From: an uncultured bacterium
Lineage (GTDB): Bacteria > Patescibacteriota > Minisyncoccia > Phycocordibacterales > Phycocordibacteraceae
Assembly: GCA_937879955.1 (NCBI GenBank)
Contig: CALFMK010000001.1
Span: forward strand, 442,356-506,355
Direction: 5' to 3'
DNA: 64,000 nucleotides
In this document: piece after piece, positions 32,339-51,349 of the stretch
Layout of the letters: each line of letters starts with the position of its first letter
How positions within the stretch are numbered: the stretch's first letter is position 1
Position numbers and translations under genes: made by a program
The notes under the pieces: generated by a model
Database searches by the model: none
What the model saw: the letters and a program-made list of their open reading frames with translations, nothing else
What the model was told of the DNA's origin: nothing

Positions 32339-32350
32339 ATCTCATATCGG

Positions 32351-32421: not shown

Positions 32422-32461
32422 TTCGGGAGGATAATAGCATATCCTTTCCCTACTTTTCCAG

Positions 32462-32533: not shown

Positions 32534-32635
32534 CCCATATCGGATCCGTACCCACGAAACATGGGTAAGCCGGCTCCTTACCCGATACTACGCCACCCCT
32601 AGGAGAATGGCCATCACCGTACTAGTATTTTCGCT

Positions 32636-34099: not shown

Positions 34100-34127
34100 G
34101 TTTGTCGGCTGTGCGACCCTTTCACGT

Positions 34128-34161
34128 GTAACAAAAGGACCATTCAAGGTCCTTTTGTTAC
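34128..34161 (+). terminator. Perfect 14-bp-stem hairpin after cca
   Basis: gtaacaaaaggacc-attcaa-ggtccttttgttac. Confidence 0.7.
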
Positions 34162-34187
34162 ATTGAGACGTTACACGTGAAATACGA

Positions 34188-34210
34188 AAGGCCTGCGTAG
34201 CAGGCCTTTG
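34188..34210 (+). terminator. Second tandem hairpin after cca
   Basis: aaaggcctgc-gta-gcaggccttt. Confidence 0.55.
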
Positions 34211-34577
34211 GGTGTGGTCAGCGGTTCATCCAGAACAAGAGAGCAGGGGGATATGGGGAAGGGGGCTTGGGATGATTGCTCTCTAATAGAGTGGGAAGAA
34301 CTGAGCTGACGGAACTGATGATTGTGTGCTTTCACGTGGAACCGAGTCGGCTAGACCCAGTAGGTGTTAGGCAGATACGCTGCGATCCGTTGGACAGTCG
34401 GCGGTAACACGCTGATATGCACGTGATAGGGAACAAAGAGCTCGCAAAGAACATCGCCTCCTGAAAGGGAAGGCGCGTCTCTCACGAGCGTTGCCGACCC
34501 CCAGGTCTTCATAGATACTACGTGTCCTATAGGACAGAGTAAAGGACAACTCTGTGGATAGAGTGGATAAATGTCCT

Positions 34578-35372
34578 TTAAAGCGTTATGGACACCGGGC
34601 AGTGGTCAGAGCCGTATATATCGTCATGTATCTCGGCGTTCTTCACCTTGGACGCGAGCTTCTTCGATACGAAAATATAGTCGATACGCCATCCGACGTT
34701 CCTGTCGCGAGCCATCCGGAAAGGGCTCCACCATGAGTAGCGACCGCTTCCTTGAGTAAAGAGGCGGAACGTATCGATGAATCCAGCCTGTATCATCTGG
34801 TCGATTCCGCTGCGCTCCTCCTTCGTATACCCATGACCGCCCTCGTTCGCCTTCGGGTTCGCTAGGTCATCGGGGGTATGCGCCACGTTCAGATCCCCGC
34901 AGAATATTACCGGCTTTTCCTTCTCGAGCCGCTTCATATAGGCGAGGAAGGCCGGATCCCATTTGTCATGGCGAAGGCTGAGGCGAGAGAGGTCTTCTTT
35001 CGAATTCGGCGTATATACCGAAACGACCCAGAATGACCCCATGTCAGCCGCTATGATGCGACCCTCCTCGTTCGGATCGCCGTATCCATCATCAGATAGG
35101 CCGTATTCCTGAGCGATGTCCTCAGGCATGCCGAAGAGCACATCTTCAGGTACCTGCTTCGTGAAAATCGCGGTCCCGCTGTAGCCCTTCTTATTCCTTG
35201 CTGAATGCCAGTACTCCTCATAGCCCATAAGGTCGACAGGGGACTGGTGCTGCTCGGCCTTAGTCTCCTGCAGACAGATGATGTCTGGTTTCAGCTGCTT
35301 AACGAAGGGCTCGAACAGGCCCTTCTTATGCACAGCCCGAATGCCATTCACGTTCCAAGAGACGATCTTCAT
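34578..35372 (-). CDS. xth: Exodeoxyribonuclease III (AP endonuclease)
   Basis: 264 aa; MKIVSWNVNGIRA...CLQETK...GDLNVAH...SDHCPV. Confidence 0.92.
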   Translation of the reverse strand: MKIVSWNVNGIRAVHKKGLFEPFVKQLKPDIICLQETKAEQHQSPVDLMGYEEYWHSARNKKGYSGTAIFTKQVPEDVLFGMPEDIAQEYGLSDDGYGDPNEEGRIIAADMGSFWVVSVYTPNSKEDLSRLSLRHDKWDPAFLAYMKRLEKEKPVIFCGDLNVAHTPDDLANPKANEGGHGYTKEERSGIDQMIQAGFIDTFRLFTQGSGRYSWWSPFRMARDRNVGWRIDYIFVSKKLASKVKNAEIHDDIYGSDHCPVSITL

Positions 35373-35422
35373 TCCTCCATTCTATAGCAAAGCCTGAACG
35401 ATCCGATGCTAGCTGCTCAGGC

Positions 35423-36331
35423 CTATCCTCTCTTCGAATGAAACTTCTTATGCACGTCCCTCAGATGACTGTCCGTCACATGCGTATAGATCTGGGTCGT
35501 ATTTATGGAGGCATGGCCGAGGAGGGCCTGGACGGAGCGGATATCTGCGCCATTCGCCAGAAGGTCGGTAGCGAACGAGTGGCGCATGACGTGCGGCGTT
35601 ACCTTCTTCGTAATGCCGGCTTTCGCCGCGTAGGTCTTGATCAGGAGCTCGATGGAGCGCGGGGTGAGGCGGGTAGGGACGCGCTTCTTCGCCTCCTTCT
35701 TCCGCGCCACGCTCACGAAAAGCGCAGGCTCCATGTCCGTACGAACCTTTAAATAGGCCCTTACGGCATCCTTCGCGGCGTCCGAGAGGAATACCACGCG
35801 CACCTTCTCGCCCTTTCCACGTACGGAAAAGTCGTCACGCGAGAGATCGAGGTCGGAATCGAGGCTACAGAGCTCGGAAACGCGCAGGCCGGTCGAAAAA
35901 AGCAGCTCGAGGATCGCCTTATCGCGAAGCGAGCGCTCGTCGTTACCCTCGGTCGCCTTGAGCAGGCGATCGAGCTCTGCATTTGAGATGAGATCGAGAT
36001 GGCGCTCAGGAACCTTCGCGAGCTCTATCTTCTCCGGCGAAAGGGAAGGGATGTCGCGCTTCCTGAGGTATTTCAGATATGCCCGAAGCGCGATGAGGTA
36101 GTAGTTCTGAGTCCTGCGCTTCATCGAGTCCTTGTTCGTTCCGGGCTGACGGTTCAGCCACATGCGGAACTCGCGCACCTTCGTCTCGGTTATGTCTGAC
36201 GCGTCCTGTATCTCGGCCCAGTCGAGGAACCGCGTAAGGTAATGGTCATAGTTCTCGACCGTCTTAACGGCCCGTCCTCGTTCTATCTCTATATACTCGA
36301 GGAATTCACGCTTCATCTGCCCCGCATCCAT
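35423..36331 (-). CDS. Tyrosine site-specific recombinase (XerC/XerD-like)
   Basis: R..H..R..Y catalytic region (HVMRHSFAT...LLGHASINTTQIYTHV); N-terminal core-binding domain; start at MDAGQMKREF. Confidence 0.85.
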   Translation of the reverse strand: MDAGQMKREFLEYIEIERGRAVKTVENYDHYLTRFLDWAEIQDASDITETKVREFRMWLNRQPGTNKDSMKRRTQNYYLIALRAYLKYLRKRDIPSLSPEKIELAKVPERHLDLISNAELDRLLKATEGNDERSLRDKAILELLFSTGLRVSELCSLDSDLDLSRDDFSVRGKGEKVRVVFLSDAAKDAVRAYLKVRTDMEPALFVSVARKKEAKKRVPTRLTPRSIELLIKTYAAKAGITKKVTPHVMRHSFATDLLANGADIRSVQALLGHASINTTQIYTHVTDSHLRDVHKKFHSKRG

Positions 36332-36446
36332 GCAAAAAGGGTAGCATGCTGCTTCGCACAATATGCCAGGGCAGGTCCTCGGCCCTGAGGAAACGCCTAC
36401 TAGGAAACACTTGCGCTCTTAATCAAGGTGTGGTAAGGTGTGGCCA

Positions 36447-36713
36447 ATGCTTACGAAACGAGTAAAGACCGCCGTCATTAAGGATGCGGCACGCCATGAC
36501 ACCGACACCGGCTCTGCCGACGTCCAGGTCGCTATCCTTAGCCGCAAGATCGACGAGCTCACCAACCATCTCAAGAAGAACAAGAAGGATTTCCATTCCC
36601 GACGCGGACTTCTCCAGATGGTCGCTGACCGCCGCACGCACCTGCGCTACCTCGAGAAGAACGACAAGCGTCGCTACAGCGCGGTCGTGAAGAAGCTCGG
36701 ACTCAAGAAGTAG
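36447..36713 (+). CDS. rpsO: 30S ribosomal protein S15
   Basis: DTGSADVQVAILSRKI..L..HLK..KKDFHSRRGLL; AAGGTG SD 7 nt upstream of the ATG at 36447 (the track's GTG at 36438 is less likely). Confidence 0.9.
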   Translation: MLTKRVKTAVIKDAARHDTDTGSADVQVAILSRKIDELTNHLKKNKKDFHSRRGLLQMVADRRTHLRYLEKNDKRRYSAVVKKLGLKK

Positions 36714-36715
36714 GG

Positions 36716-36746
36716 AATCGCGGGGCACACAGCCCCGCGATTTTCG
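36716..36746 (+). terminator. Rho-independent terminator after rpsO
   Basis: aatcgcggggc-acaca-gccccgcgatttt. Confidence 0.75.
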
Positions 36747-36818
36747 TTCGTACGCAGGTGCTAGAATATCAAGACGGCTCCTCTGAGCCGCATTACACCC
36801 TTTTAATACAGAACCGCC

Positions 36819-37331
36819 ATGCCCGTGATCAAGCATCCGGCGCAGCGTGTGGGGGTTTTCATAGATACCCAGAACCTCTACCACAGCGCCAAGCATCTCT
36901 ATAAATCCCGCGTGAACTTCGCGAAGGTCCTCGAAGAGGCCGTCGGAGACCGCGTCCTCGTACGTGCTATCGCCTACGTCATCTCAACCGAAGGTGGTGA
37001 CGAGAGTGCCTTCTTCGACGCTCTCACCAAGATCGGCATCGAGACGAAGGTGAAGGGGCTCCAGATATTCTCTGACGGCGCCAAGAAGGCCGACTGGGAC
37101 GTCGGGCTCGCGATAGACGCCGTGAAGCTCGCACCGAAACTCGACACCGTCATCATCGCCTCGGGCGACGGGGATTTCGTTCCGCTCATCGAGTACCTGG
37201 ACATGAACCAGGGCTGCCAGGTAGAGGTCATATCCTTCGGCAAGTCGTCCTCCCAGAAGCTGAAGGAAGCCGCACATGCGTTCACCGACATGTGCGACAA
37301 CCCGAAGAAGTTCATCATCGGTCACCGATAG
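36819..37331 (+). CDS. NYN-domain (LabA-like) protein
   Basis: 170 aa; VGVFIDTQNLYHS...IIASGDGDFVPL. Confidence 0.8.
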   Translation: MPVIKHPAQRVGVFIDTQNLYHSAKHLYKSRVNFAKVLEEAVGDRVLVRAIAYVISTEGGDESAFFDALTKIGIETKVKGLQIFSDGAKKADWDVGLAIDAVKLAPKLDTVIIASGDGDFVPLIEYLDMNQGCQVEVISFGKSSSQKLKEAAHAFTDMCDNPKKFIIGHR

Positions 37332-37348
37332 AAATGATCGAAGGACTG

Positions 37349-37380
37349 TAAGAGCCGCACTCGCATGAGTGCGGCTCTTA
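37349..37380 (+). terminator. 14-bp-stem hairpin after the NYN gene (no U-run)
   Basis: taagagccgcactc-gcat-gagtgcggctctta. Confidence 0.45.
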
Positions 37381-37430
37381 CCCTATACACGGCCGCTTCG
37401 GTTCTTATGCCGTGCCCCGGGTATAATCGT

Positions 37431-39287
37431 ATGAGCGCTATGGCGAATACCATCGATCCTACGAAAGGGACTCTTCCACAGAAGACGACTCCCGAGCAGA
37501 CGGCCGCCGGGATGACGGCAGCATTGTCTGACCGCTCGCAGTACATCCGCACCATGGCGAAGGACATGGCCGCGCTCAGCGGTACGCAACCAGCACCCGC
37601 GCCCGCACGGCGTGAGGAGAAAAAGAAGAACGAGGAGACCTTCAGTGGCGTCACGACAGAGAAGCACGAAGAGCCGTTCTTCGAGCGCACGCGCCCGGCA
37701 TATGAAGACCGTCCGAAGGAATCCGTCGCGCTTCCAACGATGGAAGACGCCTCATCGATCGTGAGCAGCGAGTCCGCAACACCCACACCCCCTGCGCCTG
37801 CTACCTCCATGGCGCCGATAAAGCCCATCGCGCCGACAGCGAACGTCGAGGCGAGCAGGACCGCCATCCTCGAACGCCTGCGGCGGAAGGTCGAGGATAG
37901 TGCTCAGATATCGATCGAACGCACTCCCGAGCCGCTCAAGTCAGAGGTTCCGTCCGCAAGCGTTCCGGAAGAGCCGAAAGAGAAGCAGTGGCCGGATATT
38001 CCCACGCCGCCTCCGAGCTTCGCACCCATCGCTCCAAAGCAGAAGGCCGCGATTCCAGAGCCGATCGTGGCGGCGCCGGCCGCACCCAAGATTGTGGAGC
38101 CCGTTCCGGTTCCTCCGCCGATAGTTTCAGCTCCTGAACCGATTCCTGCGCAGCCCATGGCACCGAAGCCTGAGCCGCTTGCGCCACAGGCCGCACCCGA
38201 AGCAGCATGGCGTGACATCCCGTCGCCCGCACCTGCCTTCGCGCCGCTGTCCGAGCCTCAGCAGCCTGCGATTGCGACACCGAGAGAGACATACCGCGAA
38301 CCTATCGACGCATACGTCCCTGCGCGACCGATCCAGCCGCCAGCTGGCCCGACGCCATTCCATACCTATACCAGCGATTTCGCGAATCGCATCGACTCGC
38401 AAGGATCCTCGGCATTCTCCGTGCTCGCTGCCGAGCAGGATAGCGGCACCCCGGCCGCGCCCGTATCCAAGAGACGCGTCGCGCCCTCTCGCGCGGTCGT
38501 GATGGTCGCGACCGGCATCGTGCTCCTCGTGCTCGCCGGGGGCGGAGCGTTCGCGGCGTACCAGTTCGTGATGACGATGCGCAATACGCCGATCGCATCC
38601 ATAACCGTCCCCTCCATCGTCTTCGCAGACGAGTATCGCGAGCTCGAGGGGAGCGGAAACGCGCTCCTCGGGTCACTCGCCGCCGCGGGCAACGGCGCGC
38701 TCGTTCCCGGAAACGTGCTTGTCACGTACATGCTCGCGCCTGCCAGCGGCGAGGGCGAAGGGCTCATAACCGCGCCCGCAGGAGGGGACGTCTTCATGCG
38801 TGCGCTCCAGCTCCCGATGCCGGACATCCTGCTCCGGAATATCGCGAAGGAGAGCACGATAGGCGTCATCAACGCAGGCGACACGACCGCGCCATTCTTC
38901 GCGCTGCGCGTAGATTCCTACGAGCGCACCTACGCCGGCATGCTCACCTGGGAACCGCTCCTTGCGCGCGACCTCGCGCTCCTGTACCCGCTCTATCCGG
39001 TGATGGAGGCGCCTGTCCTTGACCCGACCCCGGCCGTCTCGACATCCACCGCGTCATCGACCCTCGCCGCGAGCCCGACCGTCCCTGCTGTAACATCAGC
39101 CCCCGTGCAGGCGACCGCCCGCACCCGCTTCGAAGACGCGATCGTCTCGAATCATGACGTGCGCGTCCTACGCGACACGGACGGACGATCGCTCATCCTC
39201 TACGGATATGCCGACAAGCGCACGCTCCTGATCGTCCGCGACGAGGCGAGCTTCGAGGCGCTCCTCGCACGCTTGAAAGCAGAGTAG
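37431..39287 (+). CDS. Pro/Ala-rich single-pass membrane protein, hypothetical
   Basis: Long PAP/PEP-rich low-complexity N-terminal half, TM helix VVMVATGIVLLVLAGGGAFAAYQFV, globular C-terminal half; the track start at 37365 lies inside the upstream hairpin; TATAAT at 37423. Confidence 0.55.
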   Translation: MSAMANTIDPTKGTLPQKTTPEQTAAGMTAALSDRSQYIRTMAKDMAALSGTQPAPAPARREEKKKNEETFSGVTTEKHEEPFFERTRPAYEDRPKESVALPTMEDASSIVSSESATPTPPAPATSMAPIKPIAPTANVEASRTAILERLRRKVEDSAQISIERTPEPLKSEVPSASVPEEPKEKQWPDIPTPPPSFAPIAPKQKAAIPEPIVAAPAAPKIVEPVPVPPPIVSAPEPIPAQPMAPKPEPLAPQAAPEAAWRDIPSPAPAFAPLSEPQQPAIATPRETYREPIDAYVPARPIQPPAGPTPFHTYTSDFANRIDSQGSSAFSVLAAEQDSGTPAAPVSKRRVAPSRAVVMVATGIVLLVLAGGGAFAAYQFVMTMRNTPIASITVPSIVFADEYRELEGSGNALLGSLAAAGNGALVPGNVLVTYMLAPASGEGEGLITAPAGGDVFMRALQLPMPDILLRNIAKESTIGVINAGDTTAPFFALRVDSYERTYAGMLTWEPLLARDLALLYPLYPVMEAPVLDPTPAVSTSTASSTLAASPTVPAVTSAPVQATARTRFEDAIVSNHDVRVLRDTDGRSLILYGYADKRTLLIVRDEASFEALLARLKAE

Positions 39288-40456: not shown

Positions 40457-41629
40457 CTACGAGCCAAACGGGTTCTTCGCACCGCGGACCTCAAAATGGA
40501 GGTGGTAGCCGGTCGCCTGGCCGGTGTTCCCGACGGTACCGATGTTCTGGCCGCGCGAGACCGTCTCGCCGACCGATACGCCGTCGGTGCTCATGTGCGC
40601 GTAGAGCGTCTGGACGCCGTTGCCATGATCGATCACGACGTAGTTGCCGTATCCGCCGTTCCAGCCGCCGACGCGGGATACGATGACCGTACCAGCCGCC
40701 GCGGCATAGATAGGGGAGCCCTGCGGTGCCGCGAGATCGACGCCGTTCCAGCCATGGATGCTCTGGGAGAGGCGGCCTGCAGGCGCCGGGTTCGCGAACG
40801 AGCTCGAGAACGAGTCGTCAGACGTGTTGCCGGTAGCCTTTACCGCACCCATCGAGCCGCCTTGCTTGATCTTCGAGGCAGCAGCGCCCGTGGACTTGGC
40901 CTTCGCCGTGGTCTTTACAGGCGTTGCCGCGAGCTCGCCGCCCGGGATGATGACCGTCGCGCCCTTCACGAGGTCGTCCACGGAGCTCATGCCGTTATAG
41001 GAGGCGATCTCCTCGGCGTCGGAACCGTACTTCTTCGCGAGCGAGGCGAGCGTATCGCCGGAAGCCACGGTATGACGGATGCCGGACACCGGAAGGATGA
41101 TGAGGGTCATGCCCGGATGCACGGCTCCCTTGCTCGTGAGGTTGTTCGCCCAGAGGATCGTGTTCATCGAGACATCGAACATGTCCGCGATGCCAGAGAG
41201 GGAATCGCCCTCGCGCACGGTGTAGGTGGAAATGCGACCAGAACCGTTCGAGCGGTCGATATCGGCGATGGTGCCGTCAGGACCCGTGTAAGCGATGAGC
41301 GCAGAGCCGTCGGTAAGGCTGATGCCACCACGGCCCTTGGCAGGGTTCGGGTCAGGGTTAACCGCCGCCTGGAGGAGGTCCAGGCTGCTGTCATGAAGCA
41401 CAGGCACGGTCGAAGCGCCTTCCGAAGCGTTCGTTACGGAAAATGGCCAGAATGCGCCAGCGGCGCGTGGCATGAGGGTGATTCCTATCCCCAGAAGGAG
41501 GCTTGCGGCGATTAGAGCGCCAGGAATCCAGTATGCATTCCGGTCTGCTGCCGAGGCAGTTCGAACGGAAAGGTTCTGAGGGTCAATGATAGGGAACCAA
41601 GGGATCTTCAGCGTTTCTTCAGAATACAA
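40457..41629 (-). CDS. LysM-domain (x2) M23-family peptidoglycan endopeptidase
   Basis: Two LysM repeats (YTVREGDSLSGIA..., HTVASGDTLASLAKKYG); M23 motifs HxxxD...YAHMS...GYHLHFE. Confidence 0.88.
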   Translation of the reverse strand: MYSEETLKIPWFPIIDPQNLSVRTASAADRNAYWIPGALIAASLLLGIGITLMPRAAGAFWPFSVTNASEGASTVPVLHDSSLDLLQAAVNPDPNPAKGRGGISLTDGSALIAYTGPDGTIADIDRSNGSGRISTYTVREGDSLSGIADMFDVSMNTILWANNLTSKGAVHPGMTLIILPVSGIRHTVASGDTLASLAKKYGSDAEEIASYNGMSSVDDLVKGATVIIPGGELAATPVKTTAKAKSTGAAASKIKQGGSMGAVKATGNTSDDSFSSSFANPAPAGRLSQSIHGWNGVDLAAPQGSPIYAAAAGTVIVSRVGGWNGGYGNYVVIDHGNGVQTLYAHMSTDGVSVGETVSRGQNIGTVGNTGQATGYHLHFEVRGAKNPFGS

Positions 41630-41803: not shown

Positions 41804-43720
41804 TTGCTTTCTATGCAGCACCTTGAAGGATTGAACCCGGCACAGAGAGAAGCGGTCCTCGCAACCTCAGGACCCGTATCGGTCCTCGCCGGCGCCGGAT
41901 CCGGCAAGACCCGGGTGCTCACGACCCGCATCTACCACCTCATCAAGGAAGGGGTGCCTGCCCACAAGATCCTGGCCGTCACCTTCACCAACAAGGCCGC
42001 CCGCGAGATGAAGGAGCGCCTCGCGCACCGCCTCGGGGACAGCCCGCTGCCGTTCGTCGCCACGTTCCACGGGCTCGGACGGGAGATCCTGCAGCGATAC
42101 GGCGAGCGCATCGGGATCCCGAAGTATTTCACGATATTCGACCGCGACGATTCGAAGGCGGCGATCCGCCAGGTTCTCAAGGAGATGGACATCGATCCGA
42201 AGGAGCTGAATCCGAACTTCGTGCTGTCCCGCATCTCGAAGGAGAAGGGGGAGGGGGGCACGCCGGCGAAGTTCCGCGAGCAGCACGCCCACAAGAGCTT
42301 CCAGTCCCGCGTCATCGCGGAGGTGTGGCCGCGCTACGAGGCGATCGTCCGGAAGGAGAAGGCACTCGACTTCGACGACCTCATATCGCTCCCCGTGCAT
42401 CTCCTGCGCGATCACGAGGACATCCGGAAGCAGGCGGAGCAGCTCTACAGCCACGTGCATGTCGACGAGTTCCAGGATACGAACGGGTTGCAGGGCAAGC
42501 TCGCCGGCTATCTCTCGAACGCGCACAAGAACCTCTTCGTCGTGGGCGACATCGACCAGACGATCTATACCTGGCGCGGCGCTACGATCGAGAACCTCCT
42601 CGATTTCGAGGAGACCTACCCTGACGCGAAGACCATCGTGCTCGCGCATAACTACCGCTCCACGAAGACCATCGTGGCGGCCGGGAACCAGATCATCGAG
42701 AAGAACCAGAACCGCAAGGCGAAGCACGCGATAACGGACAACCCGGACGGGGAGCCGATACGGCTGCATGTCGCGCGGAACGCGGAGAGCGAGGCGCGCT
42801 GGGTGGCGCGCGAGGCGAGGAAGGCCATGCGCGCGGGCGTCGCGCCCGAGGAAATCGCCGTGCTCTTCCGCACGAACTTCCAGTCGCGCGCGCTTGAGGA
42901 GGCGTTCCTTTCGGAAGGCATACCGTACAAGGTCCTCGGCACGCGCTTCCTCGACCGGAAAGAAGTGAAGGACGTGCTCGCATGGGTCAGGCTCGCGCTC
43001 GACCCGGAGCGGGAAGCGGACCGGGTGCGCGCGGTCCAGGCGCCGACCCGGGGCATCGGGAAAGTGACGCTCGGCAAGCTCGTAGAGGGACGCAGGGATG
43101 AGCTAAAGCCCGCAGAGCGTACGAAAGTAGCGGCTTTCGAGGCGATTGTCACCGAGCTCAACGAGCTCTCGAAGATCGCGATACCGTCCGAGTTCGTGAA
43201 GCTCGTGATCGAGAAATCCGGAATCGCGGCGAGCCTCCAGAAGGGCGGGGACGAGGACATGGAACGTCTTGAGAACGCGAAGGAGCTCGCCACCCTCGCG
43301 AGCCGCTATGACGGGCAGCCCGGGGAGGAGGGTATCGCCGCGTTCCTCGCGGAGTCCGCGCTCGCTGGCGACCAGGACGAGCTCGATGCGCCCGGGAAGA
43401 CGGGCGCGACGCTCATGACGGTCCACGCAGCTAAAGGGCTCGAGTTCGATACGGTCTTCGTGACCGGCATGGAGGAAGGGCTCTTCCCGCATCAGGGTCA
43501 CGAAGGAGAGAAGCGCGACGAGGAAGAGGAACGTCGCCTGTTCTACGTCGCCGTGACGCGCGCGAAACGGCGCCTCGCGCTCACCCTCGCGACGGTACGA
43601 CGCATCTACGGCACCGACTTCGTATCCGAGCCATCCTCGTTCATACGCGATATCGACGACGGCCTGATACAGTTCTCGGAAGGGGACGAGCTCTACGGAG
43701 AGCGGACCATCTACATATAG
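41804..43720 (+). CDS. pcrA: ATP-dependent DNA helicase PcrA/UvrD family
   Basis: 638 aa; Walker A GAGSGKT, DEFQDTN, remaining helicase motifs and 2B domain. Confidence 0.92.
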   Translation: MLSMQHLEGLNPAQREAVLATSGPVSVLAGAGSGKTRVLTTRIYHLIKEGVPAHKILAVTFTNKAAREMKERLAHRLGDSPLPFVATFHGLGREILQRYGERIGIPKYFTIFDRDDSKAAIRQVLKEMDIDPKELNPNFVLSRISKEKGEGGTPAKFREQHAHKSFQSRVIAEVWPRYEAIVRKEKALDFDDLISLPVHLLRDHEDIRKQAEQLYSHVHVDEFQDTNGLQGKLAGYLSNAHKNLFVVGDIDQTIYTWRGATIENLLDFEETYPDAKTIVLAHNYRSTKTIVAAGNQIIEKNQNRKAKHAITDNPDGEPIRLHVARNAESEARWVAREARKAMRAGVAPEEIAVLFRTNFQSRALEEAFLSEGIPYKVLGTRFLDRKEVKDVLAWVRLALDPEREADRVRAVQAPTRGIGKVTLGKLVEGRRDELKPAERTKVAAFEAIVTELNELSKIAIPSEFVKLVIEKSGIAASLQKGGDEDMERLENAKELATLASRYDGQPGEEGIAAFLAESALAGDQDELDAPGKTGATLMTVHAAKGLEFDTVFVTGMEEGLFPHQGHEGEKRDEEEERRLFYVAVTRAKRRLALTLATVRRIYGTDFVSEPSSFIRDIDDGLIQFSEGDELYGERTIYI

Positions 43721-43722
43721 CC

Positions 43723-44523
43723 ATGGCATTCGCCAAAAAATCCCTCGGACAGAACTTCCTCATGCATCGGCAGACCGCCGAGCGCATCGTGAAGGCAGCC
43801 GATCTTCCGGATGGCGCGCTCGTGCTCGAGGTGGGTCCCGGCACCGGCATGCTCACGAAGGAGCTGCTCGCTCTCGGCTATCGCGTGCTCGCGGTCGAGG
43901 CCGACTTCGCACTCATTCCTGAGCTCGAGAGCACGTTCGAGAAGGAGATAGGGGAGGGAAGAATCACCATCCTCGCCGCTGACATCCGCTCGTTCGATAC
44001 GGAGACGATACGGGAGCCGTACCATGTGGTAGCGAACATCCCGTACTACATCACCGGCGAGATCATCCGCCAGTTCCTCACCGCCCCGAACCAGCCAGCG
44101 TCCATGACCCTCCTCGTCCAGAAAGAAGTCGCCGAGCGCGTCGCTCGAGCGAACAAAGAGAGCCTGCTTTCACTGTCTGTGAAGGCCTATGGGACGCCGA
44201 AGTTCTGCTTCGTCGTGCCGCGCGGCGCCTTCGTACCAGCCCCGAACGTCGATTCGGCCGTACTCCGGATAAGTGCCATAAGCCGAACATCCTTCTCGGA
44301 CAAGGAAGAGGAGGACGCCTTCTTCGCCATGCTCCATGCCGGATTCGCCCATAAGAGGAAACGCCTGGCGAAAAATCTCGAGGAGTACGCACCAAAGGAG
44401 GAGATAGTGAGCGCGTTTTCCGAGATTGACCTCGACCAGAACGTGCGAGCCGAGGACCTCACGCTTCCGACCTGGTTCGCGCTTCTCGCACGGATCAGAC
44501 CCTCAGGAAAGAAAGGTATTTAA
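43723..44523 (+). CDS. rsmA: 16S rRNA (adenine1518/1519-N6)-dimethyltransferase
   Basis: 266 aa; LGQNFL...VLEVGPGTG...NIPY. Confidence 0.92.
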   Translation: MAFAKKSLGQNFLMHRQTAERIVKAADLPDGALVLEVGPGTGMLTKELLALGYRVLAVEADFALIPELESTFEKEIGEGRITILAADIRSFDTETIREPYHVVANIPYYITGEIIRQFLTAPNQPASMTLLVQKEVAERVARANKESLLSLSVKAYGTPKFCFVVPRGAFVPAPNVDSAVLRISAISRTSFSDKEEEDAFFAMLHAGFAHKRKRLAKNLEEYAPKEEIVSAFSEIDLDQNVRAEDLTLPTWFALLARIRPSGKKGI

Positions 44524-44591: not shown

Positions 44592-45590
44592 ATGGCTCAT
44601 TCTACCCGCACACTCCGCATCGTCCTGGCATCGGTCATCGCCGTCCTCATGGTGGGGAGCGCATACGTGTTCTCCGGCCCGAACCCGTTCTTCGGGCTCG
44701 GCCGCATAGCCGAGGCGCAGTCTTCCGAGGAGCTCCTCAAGGAATACGCCGCGAAGGATAGCGATACGGACGGGCTTCCGGACTGGCAGGAGGCGCTCTA
44801 TGGCACCGATCCGCTCAATGCGGAATCGTTCAAGGCAGGAACCAAGGACGGGGACGCGGTAGCGCAGGGCCTCGTCGAGCCCAAGGTCGCCGTACGGCCT
44901 GAGGAAGAGCCGACCGACCTCAGCAGCATCCCGGGCACGCTCCCTGCAGCGAACTCCGTGACCGACCGGTTCGCCCAGACGCTCCTGAAGAAGTACCTGC
45001 TCGGCCGTGGCGAGACGCCGCCGACAAGCGCAGAGATAGTGGCATTCGTCACCGCAAGCATCGACGACCTCGCGAACGAGAGCACGTCTCCGGTCACGTT
45101 CAAGCCCTCGGACGTTCGCGCCGGATCCGGCACCGGCACCGCTGCCATGACTACCTATGCCGCTCAGATGGAGGCCGCGTTCGCCGCGAATACGGTGCCC
45201 GCGGACAGGAACGAGCTCTCGTACTTCGCGGACGCCGTGAAGGGCGATGATTCCGCACTGAAGAAGATCGGCGACATAAGCAAGGCATACAAGAACATTG
45301 CGAGCGCGATCATGAAGATCCAGGTCCCTGCGGAAGCGCGCCAGGCGCATCTCGCGATCGCGAACGCTCTCATGCACATGAGCGAGACCAGCGGAGACAT
45401 GTCGATGATGGAGACCGATCCGGTCCGTGCGCTCATGGGCATTGGGCTCTATGAGCGCTACGCGAACGAGGTGGTAGCGGCCTTCACGAACCTCAGCGGA
45501 ATCTTCGTCGCGCAGCAGGTATCGATCCCGAGCGGAACGGAGGGATACTTTATCGTAAAGACTGCAGCCGACGCAGCTGCTAGCAAATAA
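44592..45590 (+). CDS. Membrane-anchored hypothetical protein with a thrombospondin-type-3-like Ca-binding motif (DSDTDGLPDW)
   Basis: N-terminal TM helix; first gene of the co-directional cluster. Confidence 0.55.
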   Translation: MAHSTRTLRIVLASVIAVLMVGSAYVFSGPNPFFGLGRIAEAQSSEELLKEYAAKDSDTDGLPDWQEALYGTDPLNAESFKAGTKDGDAVAQGLVEPKVAVRPEEEPTDLSSIPGTLPAANSVTDRFAQTLLKKYLLGRGETPPTSAEIVAFVTASIDDLANESTSPVTFKPSDVRAGSGTGTAAMTTYAAQMEAAFAANTVPADRNELSYFADAVKGDDSALKKIGDISKAYKNIASAIMKIQVPAEARQAHLAIANALMHMSETSGDMSMMETDPVRALMGIGLYERYANEVVAAFTNLSGIFVAQQVSIPSGTEGYFIVKTAADAAASK

Positions 45591-45593
45591 GCC

Positions 45594-47105
45594 ATGGAAC
45601 ACGACTACAGGAGATTCTGGTTCCGCGCATCGAAGGCAATCATCGCGCTCGTACTCGCCGTATCCGTCGGCAGCACCGCGCTCCCGCAGCGCGCGCACGC
45701 CATTCTCGGCGTCGGAGACGTCGTTATCGACCCGACGAACCTCGTTCAGAACACGGTCAATGCCGTGTCTTCCGCGGCAACCCACGTTAAGGAATACGTC
45801 CTCGATACGCTCGCGTGGCAGGTCGGCAACCTCGCCATCCAGTCGATGACCAAGAGCCTCGTGAACTGGATCAATTCCGGCTTCAAGGGCTCTCCCGCAT
45901 TCGTCACCGACCTCAACAGGAATCTCCAGGGGGTAGGGGACAAGGTCGCATCCGAATTCTTCGAGTCGCTCTCGAGCAATCTCGACGGCATCACGACGAC
46001 GCCGTTCCAGGACAAGGTCATCGATGCCGTGCGTCTCGGCTACTATCTCCGCACGAGCCCGGAATCGTTCTATACGAAGTATCCGTACACGCTCAACCAG
46101 GTGAGCAGCAATGATAAGGAGTTCCTGAAGGGTAAGTTCACCGAGGGCGGCTTCAACGCGTGGTTCCAGGCTACGCTCGTGCCGCAGAACAACCCGTACG
46201 GCGCGCGCGAGCTCGCGGAGAAGGTACTCTCCGAGCAGGTCGGGACCCAGGTGCAGATCCGCACGCGTGAGCTCGACTGGGGCAAGGGGTTCCTCTCATG
46301 GAGAGGGGACTGCGTCGCGACGACGCGCTCCGTGAGCGCCGCGGCTGACGCCATGAACGCTACCGGCGACGAGGAGCCGGTCGACCTCAGCGGCGAGGAC
46401 GAGTGCCTCGGCTATGAGGTGAAGACCCCGGGCTCGGTCATCATGGAAGCGATCCCGAACAGCATGCAGGCGAATATGAACCGGCTCGTGTCGGCTGATG
46501 AGCTCAATGAGATCGTCGGCGCGCTCATGAACCAGCTCATCGGCCAGGTGCTCGGCAGCGGCAGCGGGGGAGGAGGGCTCAGCGGCCTATCGCGCCCTTC
46601 GGCAGGCGGCGGCGCATCCGTTCTCGATCAGGCCACTGATTCCTCTCAGGCAGGAAGCACCCAGGGTATCAGCAGTACTTTCGCCGCGACCCTCAGCAAC
46701 CAGCGCAAGTACGTCGCGGAGTATCAGGCAGGATGGGATACGATCCGCACGGCGGCCCAGGCCGTGCCGCAGCGCTGCTCGACGAGCGGTTCCCCGTCCC
46801 CGCAGGATCTCATAGCGCGCTCGGGAGAAGCGCTCGTGCAGGCCGCGAACGGACTCGCCGCGCTCGACGCGCTCCAGACTCGCCTTACTGCAGCCCTCGA
46901 CGCAGGCGGCAGCCAGACTACGACCCTCCTCGCGATATCGGAGGACTATAACGAGCTCACCAGTTCGGATACGCTCCCGAGCGCCGAGGCTATTGCCGAA
47001 GCGCAGACAGAATCGAAGGACAGCGGGCAAAGCGAGCAGGTATCCTTCTACACCCAGATGACGCGTCTCGCATCGAGCCGCACCTGCGACGTCTCGGACG
47101 AATAA
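45594..47105 (+). CDS. Secreted hypothetical protein (503 aa) with a Gly/Ser-rich segment
   Basis: Signal peptide ...ALPQRAHA; no recognisable motif; 3 nt after the upstream gene. Confidence 0.55.
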   Translation: MEHDYRRFWFRASKAIIALVLAVSVGSTALPQRAHAILGVGDVVIDPTNLVQNTVNAVSSAATHVKEYVLDTLAWQVGNLAIQSMTKSLVNWINSGFKGSPAFVTDLNRNLQGVGDKVASEFFESLSSNLDGITTTPFQDKVIDAVRLGYYLRTSPESFYTKYPYTLNQVSSNDKEFLKGKFTEGGFNAWFQATLVPQNNPYGARELAEKVLSEQVGTQVQIRTRELDWGKGFLSWRGDCVATTRSVSAAADAMNATGDEEPVDLSGEDECLGYEVKTPGSVIMEAIPNSMQANMNRLVSADELNEIVGALMNQLIGQVLGSGSGGGGLSGLSRPSAGGGASVLDQATDSSQAGSTQGISSTFAATLSNQRKYVAEYQAGWDTIRTAAQAVPQRCSTSGSPSPQDLIARSGEALVQAANGLAALDALQTRLTAALDAGGSQTTTLLAISEDYNELTSSDTLPSAEAIAEAQTESKDSGQSEQVSFYTQMTRLASSRTCDVSDE

Positions 47106-47109: not shown

Positions 47110-49371
47110 ATGAGGAGCCCTCTCTCATTCGTACGGACAGCGATCCTCTCGGCCGCCCTGGTCCTGACACTGTTCGTAGGCGCATTTCCTGCAAATGCTC
47201 AGGTAACATATACCGACAAGCGCGGAGCGTCCTGCACCAGCTCCAGCCGGACGGTGAGCACGACGAACATCTCTACGACTGTATGTACCTTCCCGGACGG
47301 CACGAAAGAGACATGCGAGGTATCAGGATCTTCTGAGATGGGACCGAGTCCCGCGACCTGCGAGACCGTCTATCCGGACGGAAGGACGGTCTCCGGAACC
47401 TATACCGGCATCGTCGATACGAGCTGCGAGAAGGACGCGGACGGGAAGTGCAAGGAGGGCACGACGCAGGTGAACTCTCCAGCCCTAGGAGCTGCCGTGA
47501 ATGCGGTCGTGGACACCGCGAGCGACATAGTCGTGAAGCCGGTTATCTCGTTCGTTCTCGGCTTCGCTACTTTCATGCTCGGTATCGCGGGCGTGTTCTT
47601 CAACCAGGTCATGATAAAGACGGTGTTCCAGTTCAGCACGTACTTCGGCTCCTCCGAAGGACTCCTGACCGCATGGGGCGTCATGCGCGACGTCGCGAAC
47701 ATCGGCCTCCTGTTCGGTTTCATATTCATGGGAGTCCTGCTAATACTCAATGTCGACGGGGGAGGGCATGGCCACGGGCATGGCGGCGGCATCAGCGCGA
47801 AGCGCGCCATCCCGCGCCTCATTATCTTCGCCGTCCTCCTGAACTTCAGTCTCTTCGCGTCCCAGGCGGTCATCGACGTCTCGAACGCGTTCGCGTCCAC
47901 CTTCACGACCCTCGCCGGCGCAGCCTGCGATGATAATGCATCCGCGACAGACGGGGACAACGCCTGCGCGAATGTCGGTATCGCAGGAAAGGTGATGCAG
48001 CTGGCCGGCATAGCCACCATCTGGAACCCTGACATCGATGCAAGCCCTACGGTACTTCTCGGGCTTACCATATTCGTCCTAATAACGATGGTCGTGCTCC
48101 TTGCGGCAGGTCTCATGCTCGTATTCCGCGTCGTGGTACTCACCATGCTCATGGTCACGTCTCCGATCGGCTTCGCCGGCATGGTCATACCGGGCCTACA
48201 AGGGCTCGCGAGCCGCTGGTGGCACATGCTCATATCGCAGTCCTTCTTCGCCCCGGTGATGCTCCTCCTCGTGTTCATAAGCCTCAAGATGGCAGAGTCC
48301 CTGAATCCGAACGGCGCGCCGCTCGTGGACGCGTTCGCCGGAGCGAACACCACCATGGCCGGGAACCTCGAGGTGCTCGTCGTATTCGCGGTCGTCATCG
48401 GTCTCATGATCAGCTCGCTCATCGTTGCCGCGAAGATGGGCGCGACAGGCGCATCGTTTGCGACCAATACGGCAAGCGCGGTCACGTTCGGCGCCCTTAC
48501 GCGCGTCACGAATGCCAGTGTCGGAGGCACCGCGCGCGGGCTGCGTGCAGCGCAGCAGAGCCAGTGGGCAAGCAGGGTAGGGACCCGCGTGCTCGGCGTA
48601 CGCGGCGCTGCCGTAGCGGGCAAGGTTGGCGAAGTCGCCGTGAACCGGGTGCTCCGTCCGGTCGAGAAGGCGAACATGGATGTGCGGCGCGCGCCTGGCA
48701 TGGGGGCGATCCTCGGCGCAGCCGGCGTTACCGCAGGCGCGAAGCCCGCAGAGCACGCGACATACGGCGACATGGCGCATCAGGTCACCGATATCCGCGG
48801 CGGCGCAGGCGGCAAGAAGCTTGAGGCCGAATACAAGAAGGAGGTCAAGTACGCATCGCTCGAGGGCCTCGCACACGATGACAAGCTCAATGAGGATACC
48901 GCAGAGGCGAAGGAGGCCCGGAAGCTCCTCACGTCGCTCTCGACGAAGGAGCTCGAGGCGCTCCACGGCATCCAGGAGGGTGTCTCTCAGATGGCACAGA
49001 ACCTCACGCCCGAGCAGCTCGAGAATCTCCAGAAGAGCGACAAGCTCGATGACGGACAGAAGCGTACGCTCAAGGAGAAGTACGAGGAGAAGTTCGCCGG
49101 CGACAACGCGAAGCGAACGATTCCAGGTATGAATGCCGAAGGTATCGCGAAGCTCGGCGGGGGTACCGTTTCGAAAACAGAGGTACTTGGGACCATGACT
49201 GGCCGTCAGCTCGCCGCGATCAATCCGGACAAGCTGAACGCTACTCAACTCGCGACTGTACAGGCATATATCAAGAGTCAGCGCACAGCGGGCACTCCTG
49301 CCGGGAAGGAATTCGAAATGCTCCTTATCGGGAACCCAAAGACGAAGGAGCGGTGGGGAGGCTTGGTATAA
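47110..49371 (+). CDS. VirB6/TrbL-like polytopic membrane protein with an N-terminal secreted Cys-containing domain, a GGGHGHGHGGG loop and a long charged cytoplasmic tail
   Basis: 753 aa; signal peptide, about 6-8 TM helices in the middle, K/E-rich C-terminal 250 aa. Confidence 0.5.
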   Translation: MRSPLSFVRTAILSAALVLTLFVGAFPANAQVTYTDKRGASCTSSSRTVSTTNISTTVCTFPDGTKETCEVSGSSEMGPSPATCETVYPDGRTVSGTYTGIVDTSCEKDADGKCKEGTTQVNSPALGAAVNAVVDTASDIVVKPVISFVLGFATFMLGIAGVFFNQVMIKTVFQFSTYFGSSEGLLTAWGVMRDVANIGLLFGFIFMGVLLILNVDGGGHGHGHGGGISAKRAIPRLIIFAVLLNFSLFASQAVIDVSNAFASTFTTLAGAACDDNASATDGDNACANVGIAGKVMQLAGIATIWNPDIDASPTVLLGLTIFVLITMVVLLAAGLMLVFRVVVLTMLMVTSPIGFAGMVIPGLQGLASRWWHMLISQSFFAPVMLLLVFISLKMAESLNPNGAPLVDAFAGANTTMAGNLEVLVVFAVVIGLMISSLIVAAKMGATGASFATNTASAVTFGALTRVTNASVGGTARGLRAAQQSQWASRVGTRVLGVRGAAVAGKVGEVAVNRVLRPVEKANMDVRRAPGMGAILGAAGVTAGAKPAEHATYGDMAHQVTDIRGGAGGKKLEAEYKKEVKYASLEGLAHDDKLNEDTAEAKEARKLLTSLSTKELEALHGIQEGVSQMAQNLTPEQLENLQKSDKLDDGQKRTLKEKYEEKFAGDNAKRTIPGMNAEGIAKLGGGTVSKTEVLGTMTGRQLAAINPDKLNATQLATVQAYIKSQRTAGTPAGKEFEMLLIGNPKTKERWGGLV

Positions 49372-49383
49372 TCGGTAGCATCC

Positions 49384-50214
49384 ATGCACACCGATCAGGA
49401 AGTCAGTAGAGCATATGATCTCGCGCCGAAGGCGATACAGGACGCATTGAGCGACGGGCCTGCCGTCGACTTCATGGTGAACCTGCAGTCGCGCTACGGT
49501 CTTCATGTCGATGTCGCAGGAAGCATCGTGAGCCGTATACGCGATCTGCTTCTCGGGCTCGCGAACCCTACGGAGTTCCTCGGCGAGCTCATACAGCTCG
49601 GTCTCACCGATACGGTCGCGCGCGCTATCGTAGCCGACCTGAACAAGGAGGTATTCGTCCCGCTTCGCGAGGCGATGCGGAATGCGCCCGAAGAGCCGAA
49701 GGCGGCGGTCGAGCCCATTTCCGTACCTCAGCAATCACTGAGCCCTAAGGAGACCGTTCCTGCACCGACGCTCGCGTACGAGCCTAGGCCTGCGCCCGTA
49801 ACGCTTCCAGGCTCTCCGGTAGAAGCGCCGATGCCTGCAGCTCCTGCGTCGTTGCCGACCTATTCAGTGCCGGAGTCCGCACCTGTCGCACCATCCGTGC
49901 CGCATCCTGCATATCCTGCGCCAAGTGCGCCGCAGCCAGGATGGCATTCCGCCGCTGCCGTCCATATCTACGTGCCGAGCCACGGCGTCCCGTTCGAGCA
50001 GATGCATACCCCAGTGCCTATCGAAGCGAAGGAAATAGCTCCTGTTACGGCTCCGCTGTCGTCTGCGCCTACACCCGTTCCCCAGGCCTACGTACCAGCT
50101 CCGGCCATAGCAGCGCCCGAGCCAGTATCTGCTCCCATACCTGCGGCAACTACGCTGGCTCCGGCTCCAATAACCAAGGATTACGCCGCCGATCCGTATC
50201 GCGAACCGATCTAG
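49384..50214 (+). CDS. Pro-rich hypothetical protein
   Basis: 276 aa; globular N-terminal 90 aa then PAP/PVP low-complexity. Confidence 0.45.
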   Translation: MHTDQEVSRAYDLAPKAIQDALSDGPAVDFMVNLQSRYGLHVDVAGSIVSRIRDLLLGLANPTEFLGELIQLGLTDTVARAIVADLNKEVFVPLREAMRNAPEEPKAAVEPISVPQQSLSPKETVPAPTLAYEPRPAPVTLPGSPVEAPMPAAPASLPTYSVPESAPVAPSVPHPAYPAPSAPQPGWHSAAAVHIYVPSHGVPFEQMHTPVPIEAKEIAPVTAPLSSAPTPVPQAYVPAPAIAAPEPVSAPIPAATTLAPAPITKDYAADPYREPI

Positions 50215-50277
50215 GGCGCGCTCGCGCCTGTCCACACGCCAGGTGCCCGCGATTGTCGGAGCTGCTATGCTTTCCGC

Positions 50278-50874
50278 ATGAACGGATACGAATCAGTAGC
50301 GAGGAGGGAGGAGCGCGAACCCTCCGAGAGGGAGGAAGAAGCGGTCGGAACGGGCTCGTTCGAGCCGGTATATCCGCCACCACCCACATCCGAGGAGATA
50401 GCGAGGAAGGAAGCGCTCATAGCCGGCATGCACAGGCCTGAGGCGGCTAACGACAACCAGTTCGCTGCGAATGATAACGAGACGGCGATACATCCGACAC
50501 AGGCGAGCGAGCGCGGACACGCGGAGATTCATGAGGAGCACGGGAAGCAGGAAACCGCCCATTCTCATGAGGCGGCCGGCGGGGGCGCGGGGGGCAGCGG
50601 AGGAGACCACGGAAGCGAGCACGGCGGTGATAATCACGGAGGGAATGAAGGTGGCGGCCACGGCGGGGACCATGGTCATCATGGCGGACATCACCACGAG
50701 AATCCGTGGATCAAATGGGGGGTGAAGCAGCCGATCGCGATCTTCGGCTTCCTCATCTCGCTCGTCGTCCAGGGCGTGAAGCGCTGGGGCGAGATGGCTG
50801 GGAAGGGCGGAGGTGGCGGAGGGGGTGGCCACGGTGGGGGAGGTGGTGGTCACGGAGGAGGTGGCCATCACTAG
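50278..50874 (+). CDS. Gly/His-rich (GGGHG)n protein with one TM helix
   Basis: 198 aa; acidic N-terminus, HGGDNHGGNEGGGHGGDHGHHGGHHHE, TM helix PIAIFGFLISLVVQGV, C-terminal GGGGGGGGHGGGGGGHGGGGHH. Confidence 0.5.
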   Translation: MNGYESVARREEREPSEREEEAVGTGSFEPVYPPPPTSEEIARKEALIAGMHRPEAANDNQFAANDNETAIHPTQASERGHAEIHEEHGKQETAHSHEAAGGGAGGSGGDHGSEHGGDNHGGNEGGGHGGDHGHHGGHHHENPWIKWGVKQPIAIFGFLISLVVQGVKRWGEMAGKGGGGGGGGHGGGGGGHGGGGHH

Positions 50875-50938
50875 CGTCCACACGATTCTCATATGCGAAC
50901 AGGCAGCCGGCATCCGCCGGCTGCTATACTTATAGGCA

Positions 50939-51349
50939 ATGGAGTACCAGGTACCGCAGTTCATCGAGGTTGAGGACAAGATCTTCGGGCCGTTCACGCT
51001 CAAGCAGTTCATCTATATCGCCGGCGGGGTAGGGCTCTGCGCCATCCTCCTCCTCTATCTTCCGCTCATTCTGGGCATCGTACTCGCCGTCCCGGTCGCC
51101 GTGCTCACTGCAGCGCTCGCGTTCTACAAGGTGAACAACAAGCCGTTCGTCGAGATAATCGAGGCCGCTTTCACCTATTACATCGGCGACCGCCTCTATC
51201 TCTGGAAGAAGGAGAAGAACGCTCCGTCCGCTCCTGCGCCCGTGACAAAGCCGGCCGATCCGACGAAGCTCGGTCTCACCCAGAGCAAGCTCAAGGACCT
51301 CGCCTGGTCCCTCGACATCAAGGACCGGGAAGGGAATAACACGCCGTAG
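50939..51349 (+). CDS. PrgI/VirB3-like small membrane protein
   Basis: 136 aa; MEYQVPQFIEVEDKIFGPFTLKQFIYI plus two TM helices; sits immediately 5' of the VirB4-like gene. Confidence 0.65.
   Translation: MEYQVPQFIEVEDKIFGPFTLKQFIYIAGGVGLCAILLLYLPLILGIVLAVPVAVLTAALAFYKVNNKPFVEIIEAAFTYYIGDRLYLWKKEKNAPSAPAPVTKPADPTKLGLTQSKLKDLAWSLDIKDREGNNTP

Follow-up and report, generated by a model that had tools for sequence, protein, structure and literature searches.

The 64-kb stretch of DNA analysed here (64,000 nucleotides of contig CALFMK010000001.1, hereafter the window) comes from an uncultured, ultra-small bacterium of the Patescibacteriota and has a G+C content of ~62%. From about 44.6 to 57.5 kb it carries a run of genes on the same strand, an operon that is a chromosomal type IV secretion system (T4SS) of the oriC-proximal kind typical of Patescibacteria, with VirB6-like, PrgI/VirB3, TrsD-like, VirB4 and VirB2-like components (Table 1); the positions of DnaA and DnaN indicate that the operon adjoins the replication origin. 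Two of its products bear segments made largely of glycine and histidine (Gly/His), namely a disordered loop in the VirB6-like protein and a disordered, Gly-spaced tail, always ending in His, on a small protein encoded just before PrgI. These segments are selected features of the proteins. The tail is our main subject, for in related loci it is found either on the small protein or on VirB6 itself.

Table 1. Features of the T4SS operon and its surroundings in the window (aa, amino acids; AF2, AlphaFold2; ORF, open reading frame; HMM, hidden Markov model)
Feature	Position	Strand	Evidence
LysM + M23 (Gly-Gly endopeptidase family) gene	40457-41629	-	
uvrD/pcrA	41804-43720		
ksgA	43723-44523		
503-aa secreted protein, weak TrbJ/VirB5-like N-terminus, upstream of VirB6	45594..47105	+	NCBIfam TrbJ E = 1.9e-3; Pfam DUF4141 E = 2.6e-3
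VirB6-like polytopic membrane protein, 753 aa	47110..49371	+	homologues, AF2 + Foldseek
Gly/His loop D216-GGGHGHGHGGG-227, between hydrophobic helices 2 and 3 of VirB6	47755..47790	+	
Pro/Ala-rich protein, 276 aa, conserved helical N-terminal part, C-terminal ...DPYREPI	49384..50214	+	ORF, HMM
Small His-terminated protein, 198 aa, directly upstream of PrgI	50278..50874	+	homologues, profile search, synteny
Gly/His/Asp/Glu expansion, aa 100-133, AGGGAGGSGGDHGSEHGGDNHGGNEGGGHGGDHG	50575..50676	+	alignment A1
His cluster HHGGHHH, aa 134-140, just before hydrophobic helix	50677..50697	+	family consensus HHH[ED][NS]
Hydrophobic helix, aa 150-173, KQPIAIFGFLISLVVQGVKRWGEM	50725..50796	+	AF2 pLDDT 72-74
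Flexible tail GKGGGGGGGGHGGGGGGHGGGGHH-COOH, K176GGGGGGGGHGGGGGGHGGGGHH198	50800..50871	+	
PrgI (VirB3-like) protein	50939..51349	+	Pfam PF12666, E = 2.5e-10, above gathering score
TrsD/TraC-like protein resembling VirB4 N-terminal region, 209 aa	51353..51982	+	weak NCBIfam matches VirB4_plasma, CD1110, TrsD
VirB4-type ATPase, 608 aa	51986..53812	+	Pfam P-loop_TraG E = 2.3e-24, AAA_10, DUF87
VirB2/TrbC-like pilin candidate, 304 aa	55336..56250	+	Pfam TrbC E = 1.3e-3, below gathering score
DnaA	58860..60209	+	Pfam Bac_DnaA E = 2e-63
DnaN, after DnaA	60422..61522		Pfam DNA_pol3_beta

The Gly/His tracts

An initial annotation of this DNA had pointed to Gly/His tracts in two proteins of the T4SS operon, and a six-frame scan of the 64 kb bears this out: such tracts occur at 47752-47796, 50647-50700 and 50818-50871 only, all within the two genes named above, and none appears in 100 mononucleotide and 100 triplet shuffles. 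The matching ggc/cac/ggt repeats that had also been read in the DNA are another matter. Tandem Repeats Finder (TRF) reports a 21-bp unit repeated 2.1 times at 50812-50855, plus two weaker rows, and no simple repeat; the codons are mixed, the Gly residues of the tail being encoded by 7 GGT, 5 GGA, 4 GGC and 2 GGG. DNA slippage as the source of the tracts was rejected on these two grounds, the mixture of synonymous Gly and His codons and the limited repeats.

A family of small His-terminated proteins

That the 198-aa ORF is a gene could be doubted. It might have arisen by chance in GC-rich DNA, or the real gene might lie on the opposite strand (50293..51012), as the initial annotation had allowed; codon-usage/GC3 scoring gives the forward frame +0.075 and the best reverse frame -0.077, too weak a signal to decide, and no strong Shine-Dalgarno sequence or promoter stands upstream. 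The ORF is nevertheless a genuine gene because it has homologues in conserved synteny. Six of these (P0001-P0006) were found by homologue search at E = 6e-50 to 2e-3, each encoded directly upstream of PrgI, TraC-like and VirB4 genes, and position and orientation are fixed in dozens of genomes. The reverse ORF, for its part, is unsupported and overlaps the start of PrgI, and we regard the chance of its being the real gene, or of the 198-aa ORF being spurious, as negligible. The start of the gene shares an ATGA overlap with a mini-ORF of four codons (ATG CTT TCC GCA TGA, 50267-50281), which may be due to chance or, where a clear Shine-Dalgarno sequence is missing, may be a coupling device.

The six homologues have the non-repetitive core VKWGVKQPxAIFG...QGxKRWGEMAGKGGGG in common. 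When the family was extended by a profile search through 1.84 billion cluster representatives, it came to 39 clusters, 49-185 aa in length and uniform in architecture; the addition of copies from the loci described below brings it to 53 distinct sequences. Each copy with a readable neighbourhood lies just upstream of PrgI/VirB3. The members begin with MSE(H/N/R)PP(R/S), after which there are a disordered acidic stretch, the cluster of His residues (HHH[ED][NS]) and one moderately hydrophobic helix; after the helix come K(R)xxEMAGKGGGG and a tail of the type (H)AKKDDHGGGGHH. The last residue is His in 53 of the 53 distinct sequences, and the last two are HH in 44. Neither the 198-aa protein nor any of its relatives is matched by a model in Pfam or NCBIfam.

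In the window the protein had been described as essentially a Gly/His polymer around one helix. This overstates its composition, which is 25% Gly and 11% His, the first ~100 residues being acidic and of other kinds. The AF2 model shows helices at 38-51 and 150-173 only and is disordered elsewhere. The tract at aa 100-133 is found in the window and in its nearest relative, P0001; the corresponding columns of the family alignment (A1) are gapped in P0002-P0006, and the tract is thus a lineage-specific expansion. In the same alignment H128, H139, the GKGGGG element and the C-terminal GGGGHH are invariant.

The second helix, flanked by Trp and Lys/Arg, is probably a membrane anchor, judging from the model and from hydropathy (KD17 maxima of 1.82 for the window protein and of 1.45 on average for the family). 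With one hydrophobic helix near the C-terminus and no signal peptide, the protein resembles tail-anchored or single-pass proteins, and its membrane insertion is predicted. The segment after the helix measures ~25 aa in the AF2 model and 32 aa in the family mean, as defined by the hydropathy window. Asp is frequent beside His in the tails, as in KKDDHGGGGHH and DDHGDDHGHD. We also considered a sortase or exosortase sorting signal and rejected it: in most members the post-helix segment is ~25-40 aa long, rich in Gly/His and ends in HH, and none of the LPXTG, PEP or GlyGly signatures precedes the helix in the small family.

The Gly/His loop of the VirB6-like protein

The 753-aa protein starts with a signal peptide and a Cys-rich ectodomain and continues with a core of hydrophobic helices; its C-terminal domain, charged and ~300 aa long, ends in ...KERWGGLV, with no His tail. 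Sequence comparisons place it with difficulty. The Pfam scan of the window protein gave no TrbL or TrbL_3 match; TrbL matches 2 of 15 homologues, weakly (best E 1.5e-4), and homologue P0011 carries a precomputed PF19590 TrbL_3. The VirB6 of plasmid R388 is barely detectable by sequence profiles, and a sequence-profile search of the PDB with the VirB6 alignment returned just coiled-coil noise from the C-terminal domain. The AF2 model, of moderate confidence (pLDDT 61), has as its best PDB matches in Foldseek the TrwI/VirB6 protein of R388 (7o3v_J, E = 1.9e-3, probability 1.0, TM-score 0.53 on the target). The predicted fold thus supports the label "VirB6-like" of the initial annotation; Pfam itself is weak on this point. 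Both the window protein and TrwI (7o3v, 8rtd) are bundles of long hydrophobic helices; the former is about three times longer and differs in having the signal peptide, the Cys-rich ectodomain, the Gly/His loop and the ~300-aa charged C-terminal domain.

The loop stands directly behind a hydrophobic helix, as had been stated (...ILNVDGGGHGHGHGGGISAKRAIPRL...; ...ILNV-D216GGGHGHGHGGG227-ISAKRAIPRL), and is disordered in the AF2 model (pLDDT <50 at 217-225). It is conserved as ILNV[DE]GGGHGH(GH)GGG[ILMV]SAK[KR]AIP in ~20 species-level genomes, among which its Gly and His codons vary freely, with many synonymous differences. Retention of the peptide through synonymous codon change points to purifying selection on the peptide rather than to slippage of the DNA. 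Proteins with the loop form a monophyletic group in the VirB6 tree; in homologues farther removed the loop at this place is shorter and usually has one His (ILNTHALDEF, ILDLHSYPWKK). The initial annotation had made its reading, in terms of metal-dependent assembly or metal acquisition, depend on conservation of the tracts in orthologues. The VirB6 loop and, in the small protein, the HHH cluster, GKGGGG and the terminal HH stand up to this, and the tract at aa ~100-133, confined to the window and its nearest relative, does not; we consider that reading partly supported.

Cysteines form a second pattern in this protein. The N-terminal ectodomain has six of them (aa ~31-135, window 47200-47520), and the loop after helix 3 has a conserved pair of variable spacing, C-x10-17-CAN.GI[AS]G (aa ~257-312, window 47900-48040), the other loops having none. 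The pattern suggests disulfides outside the cell and has a bearing on topology.

Distribution of the His tail in cis and in trans

A scan of a genome collection with the small-protein alignment yielded 131 pattern matches, none of them confirmed by tblastn. Related loci were therefore sought with the VirB6 alignment instead, and 56 of 56 came from metagenome-assembled genomes of Patescibacteria, Paceibacterota or Parcubacteria. HMMs for VirB6, the Pro-rich ORF, the small protein (a purpose-built model) and PrgI were then applied to all loci.

Two arrangements emerged. In 12 loci, the window included, the small gene is present before PrgI and VirB6 has no His tail, ending in a Trp motif instead (...GGAMW, ...GDFWK, ...ERWGGLV). 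In 27 loci the small gene is absent and VirB6 itself carries a tail rich in Gly, His, Asp, Ala and Pro with His within the last four residues (...GGDHH, ...GGDTGHH, ...GGGGGH, ...PPAH). Both forms occur together in 0 loci (Fisher p = 1.1e-5, uncorrected for phylogeny). The 11 loci with neither form are mostly distant, and at least one of them (L044) has a divergent His-terminated protein in the slot before PrgI. Among the 38 VirB6 proteins lacking a small partner, 23 have His as the exact C-terminal residue, compared with 1.4% of other ORFs of at least 200 aa. The spacers drift, from Gly to Ala/Pro or Asp/Lys, while the His stays.

The two states are interleaved in the VirB6-core and VirB4 trees, which are rough neighbour-joining trees: L026, with the tail in cis, is nested in the in-trans group of the window, and L041, likewise in cis, in the group of L016/17/19/20. 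It would seem that the switch took place at least three or four times, or that the region recombines as a cassette. The in-cis VirB6 proteins have in common a motif, G.H[AIV][ND]HEA..I.K, situated 45-60 residues before the tail, and motif and tail together mirror the layout of the small protein, with His cluster, helix, linker and terminal His. In L006, L007, L022, L025, L026 and others the motif extends to G.H[AIV][ND]HEA..I.K...SK.DK..D..K, with an HxxHE-like pair on a predicted helix; G.H[AIV][ND]HEA is missing from VirB6 proteins that have a separate small partner, which have the Trp-motif end instead. The His tail is very probably a selected and interchangeable module of this T4SS, provided in cis or in trans.

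One might argue that all these segments are neutral low-complexity expansions, slippage filler in disordered regions with no specific role. Features of this sort do exist in the window, such as the tract at aa 100-133, shared with the nearest relative only, and the 21-bp x 2.1 tandem duplication inside the tail, and tails differ widely in length and composition across lineages. Neutral expansion does not, however, account for a loop kept identical over ~20 genomes amid synonymous variation, for a terminal His in 53/53 distinct sequences, for mixed rather than repeated codons or for the complementary distribution of the two forms. Conservation in the sequences compared refutes neutrality where the loop, the HHH cluster and the terminal His are concerned, and the idea holds only for the extra internal tract; as a general account we consider it very improbable.

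The slot before PrgI holds proteins of another kind in two loci. Those of L031 (11183-11947) and L048 (4556-5536) are J-domain proteins with the HPD motif, matched by DnaJ above the gathering score. In the L031 protein the J-domain (Pfam DnaJ, 33.3 bits) is followed by a His cluster and a hydrophobic helix, and the tail reads ...GGGHGGGGHH, so that this protein too ends in ...GGGGHH; the L048 protein has no such tail. L031 homology to the small family was entertained and dismissed, the similarity being driven by composition and not significant once corrected for it, and the family HMM missed the protein. A database search with the L031 protein found no homologues. The J-domain and HPD are absent from the window protein and from the 39 cluster representatives. 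A likeness to membrane-anchored J-domain proteins of the DjlA type concerns the slot protein of L031 and not the small protein of the window, which has no J-domain. These occurrences hint that DnaK is perhaps recruited to this T4SS in some lineages.

Membrane topology

Nearly all VirB6 proteins have a signal peptide with an AxA|Q site, which would put the N-terminal domain outside the cell; two helices, an even number, precede the Gly/His loop and would leave it outside as well. TrwI in the R388 complex crosses the membrane with its first two helices only, the remainder forming a periplasmic dome (Mace et al. 2022, PMC9259494). By analogy the Gly/His loop would lie outside, and so would the later loop with the Cys pair; yet, with only two predicted transmembrane helices crossing in R388, the topology is not confidently transferable to the window protein. 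A conserved KK/KR cluster follows the loop and favours the inside by the positive-inside rule, and the segment behind the last VirB6 helix is, at net +5.65, strongly basic, as cytoplasmic segments usually are. The Cys-pair loop is acidic and looks extracytoplasmic, which implies that the Gly/His loop is inside if every hydrophobic helix crosses; its placement outside fits an outside Gly/His loop equally if, as in R388, only the first two do. In the small family the flank on the C-terminal side of the helix is the more basic one in 27 sequences and the less basic in 11, favouring a cytoplasmic tail. The J-domain of the L031 protein would, on the contrary, place its N-terminus in the cytoplasm and its tail outside if the helix spans the membrane.

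Possible role of the module

How might such a module work? The tail, supplied in cis as the VirB6 C-terminus or in trans on the one-helix protein encoded before PrgI, is tethered to the VirB6 platform covalently or by its own probable anchor, and the window has the in-trans form plus an extra, non-conserved Gly/His/Asp expansion. One could envision that the histidines of the tail, the free C-terminal carboxylate and neighbouring Asp residues act as ligands on a flexible leash. They would most likely bind a divalent metal, be it Zn2+, Ni2+ or Cu2+, or else a metal site in a partner protein. An oligomer of VirB6 (a pentamer in R388) would gather many imidazoles into a cluster that might cross-link the assembly, gate it or keep metal in place. 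For this explanation as a whole, including the metal-ligand mechanism, which leans on analogy, we would put the probability at roughly 0.4.

A strictly kept His among drifting spacers is what a ligand role predicts, and it is compatible with metal binding. Like known His-rich metal-binding proteins, moreover, the segments have conserved His residues that cluster, frequently in the company of Asp or Glu, within disordered sequence. Metal is bound by the HG repeats of ZIP and CDF transporter loops, by the D/H-rich C-terminal tails of SlyD, HspA, UreE and HypB, and by the HGGG units of the prion octarepeat; in units of the HGGG type the His imidazole and the backbone amides of the following Gly can chelate Cu2+, Ni2+ or Zn2+. 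The variable loops of ZIP/CDF proteins ((HG)n in IRT1/ZIP, ZnT) and the ZnuA loop resemble the VirB6 loop in being short, disordered, Gly-spaced His segments between membrane helices or on a metal-handling protein. The likeness is one of analogy, with no homology, and VirB6 is not such a transporter. The tails of SlyD, HspA, UreE and HypB are likewise disordered, rich in His and Asp, often ended by His, and kept in composition rather than sequence; they sit, however, on soluble chaperones of Ni enzymes, whereas here the tail belongs to a membrane component of a T4SS, has much more Gly, and no Ni enzymes are evident. The prion octarepeat PHGGGWGQ and the pHpG peptides of snake venom share the HGGG-type units and are unrelated in origin and context, so that the analogy is a chemical one.

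Several findings weigh against the metal-ligand explanation. Pfam and NCBIfam reveal no homology to the known metal-binding families (Hpn, HypB, SlyD, UreE, ZnuA, ZIP/CDF), and a Pfam scan of the genes around the operon, from 39.7 to 63.8 kb, revealed neither a metal transporter nor a metallochaperone. Many in-cis tails have one or two His (...PPAH, ...PAPH, ...AGTH), more in the manner of a docking motif than of a multi-His metal site, and the longest tract of the window, at aa ~100-133, is not conserved. The conflicting cues to topology are ambiguous and do not assign the tracts to one compartment. The complementarity statistic ignores phylogeny, and the trees are rough. Finally, hhalign gave a probability of <7% for the C-terminal module of the small protein against the C-terminus of His-tailed VirB6, leaving homology unsupported; the idea of one and the same module thus rests on architecture and complementary distribution, the equivalence being functional or architectural and common descent unproven.

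The minimal tails invite a different proposal, in which the terminal His and carboxylate, on their leash, enter a pocket of VirB4, the TrsD-like protein, PrgI or the LysM-M23 enzyme, with no freely bound metal and with the Gly/His stretch as a linker. The terminal His is indeed the sole strictly universal feature, many in-cis tails contain little else (...PPAH, ...PAPH, ...PTIH), and the small gene adjoins those for PrgI, the TrsD-like protein and VirB4. The LysM-M23 gene, for its part, is syntenic in 42/55 loci. M23 enzymes cleave Gly-Gly bonds and carry Zn in their active site, a site which a poly-Gly-His tail could for that reason occupy; the enzyme might serve this T4SS as its cell-wall hydrolase, or might even be a partner of the tail. 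But any candidate partner is as yet putative, the synteny is common to the housekeeping genes uvrD and ksgA and may be merely conserved gene order near oriC, and the multi-His clusters and the GHGHG loop of VirB6 are kept beyond what a linker needs. We regard docking as a rather unlikely account.

Nor does a pH-responsive electrostatic switch seem likely to us, its standing being somewhat lower than that of docking. Gly-spaced His would become polycationic below ~pH 6.5 and, once protonated, attach to anionic lipid, to polymers of the cell wall or to the surface of the host, local pH at the contact between epibiont and host switching the apparatus. Near neutral pH no residue other than His titrates, the segments are disordered, His-rich and located beside membrane helices, and Lys/Arg residues cluster next to the tail (KR...GK...KK). 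Bulk charge does not, however, predict a strict His at the last position or Asp beside His, and tails with a single His would undergo almost no change of charge.

Returning to metal ligands, a bolder version can be formulated in which the His tails (at least five per VirB6 oligomer) and the GHGHG loops form a ring at the base of the channel, chelating Zn, Ni or Cu and either gating assembly or secretion or capturing metal from the host. This we consider improbable, about on a par with the pH switch. If true, captured host metal would serve epibionts of minimal biosynthetic capacity, and a ligand set that moves between VirB6 and an anchored protein would amount to a self-contained functional module.

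Relation to the known Patescibacterial T4SS

The chromosomal T4SS of Patescibacteria has been described by Quinonero-Coronel et al. (2025, PMC12102498) and is related to the MPF-FATA class of monoderms. The window system agrees with it in VirB4, PrgI/VirB3, VirB6, the TrsD-like protein and the VirB2-like pilin, in its chromosomal position beside dnaA and in its Patescibacterial hosts. Not described there are the small family, the His-terminated VirB6 tail and the alternation between in-cis and in-trans forms; a search of the text for glycine, His-rich and metal gave no match, and its sole "histidine" concerns the amidase domain of VirB1. A literature search for His-rich tracts in VirB6 or in Patescibacteria turned up nothing relevant. 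Neither the small family nor the His-terminal tail of VirB6 nor the complementary occurrence of the two appears in the literature searched, and Pfam and NCBIfam have no model for them; the His-tail module is an undescribed accessory of a known system.

According to work by others cited in that paper, the T4SS is among the few systems needed for epibiotic growth of a Patescibacterium. The parts list of the apparatus gains a family of small proteins, and the module, sitting on either of two proteins, provides testable handles on this machine in the form of a peptide of 20-30 residues, a single terminal residue and a small protein that can be tagged. Suitable peptides are KGGGGGGGGHGGGGGGHGGGGHH, the typical family tail GKGGGGHAKKDDHGGGGHH and the VirB6 loop NVDGGGHGHGHGGGISAK.

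Neighbouring genes

Between VirB6 and the small protein, or PrgI, there is always the Pro/Ala-rich protein. An HMM built from seven copies matches 63 ORFs, covering nearly all loci whose sequence reaches this position; Pfam and NCBIfam models give no match. The protein is 200-310 aa long, with ...YGLHVD.AG... in its N-terminal part and an invariant C-terminal ...DPYREPI(Q/E/T), other copies lying at 749-1525 in L001, 8537-9409 in L006 and 2200-3048 in L010.

Farther upstream, LysM-M23, uvrD/pcrA and ksgA precede the T4SS genes in fixed order in 42-50 of 55 related loci, and the complete order LysM-M23 peptidase (minus strand), UvrD, KsgA, 332-aa ORF, 503-aa ORF and VirB6 is syntenic in 42-54 of the 55, the 503-aa ORF being found in 54. 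The 332-aa ORF (44592-45590) is the first gene of the block and contains a bacterial thrombospondin type-3 repeat, DTDGLPDWQEALYGTDP, a Ca2+-binding motif kept in the relatives, although the TSP3_bac match (Pfam E = 6e-5) falls just under the cut-off. Downstream, orthologues of the 209-aa TrsD/TraC-like ORF carry PF26593 (TraC-like). The VirB2/TrbC-like candidate is unusually long owing to a C-terminal extension with many Cys (...CTPACTGGNRCMSGQCVPP...CKADCVAGRVCKAGAC...). Outside the operon, four tRNA genes (Gly-TCC, Pro-TGG, Gly-GCC and Arg-TCG) lie on the minus strand at 31744-32533, and around them, from 30000 to 38000, G+C falls to 50-58%, as against ~62% elsewhere.

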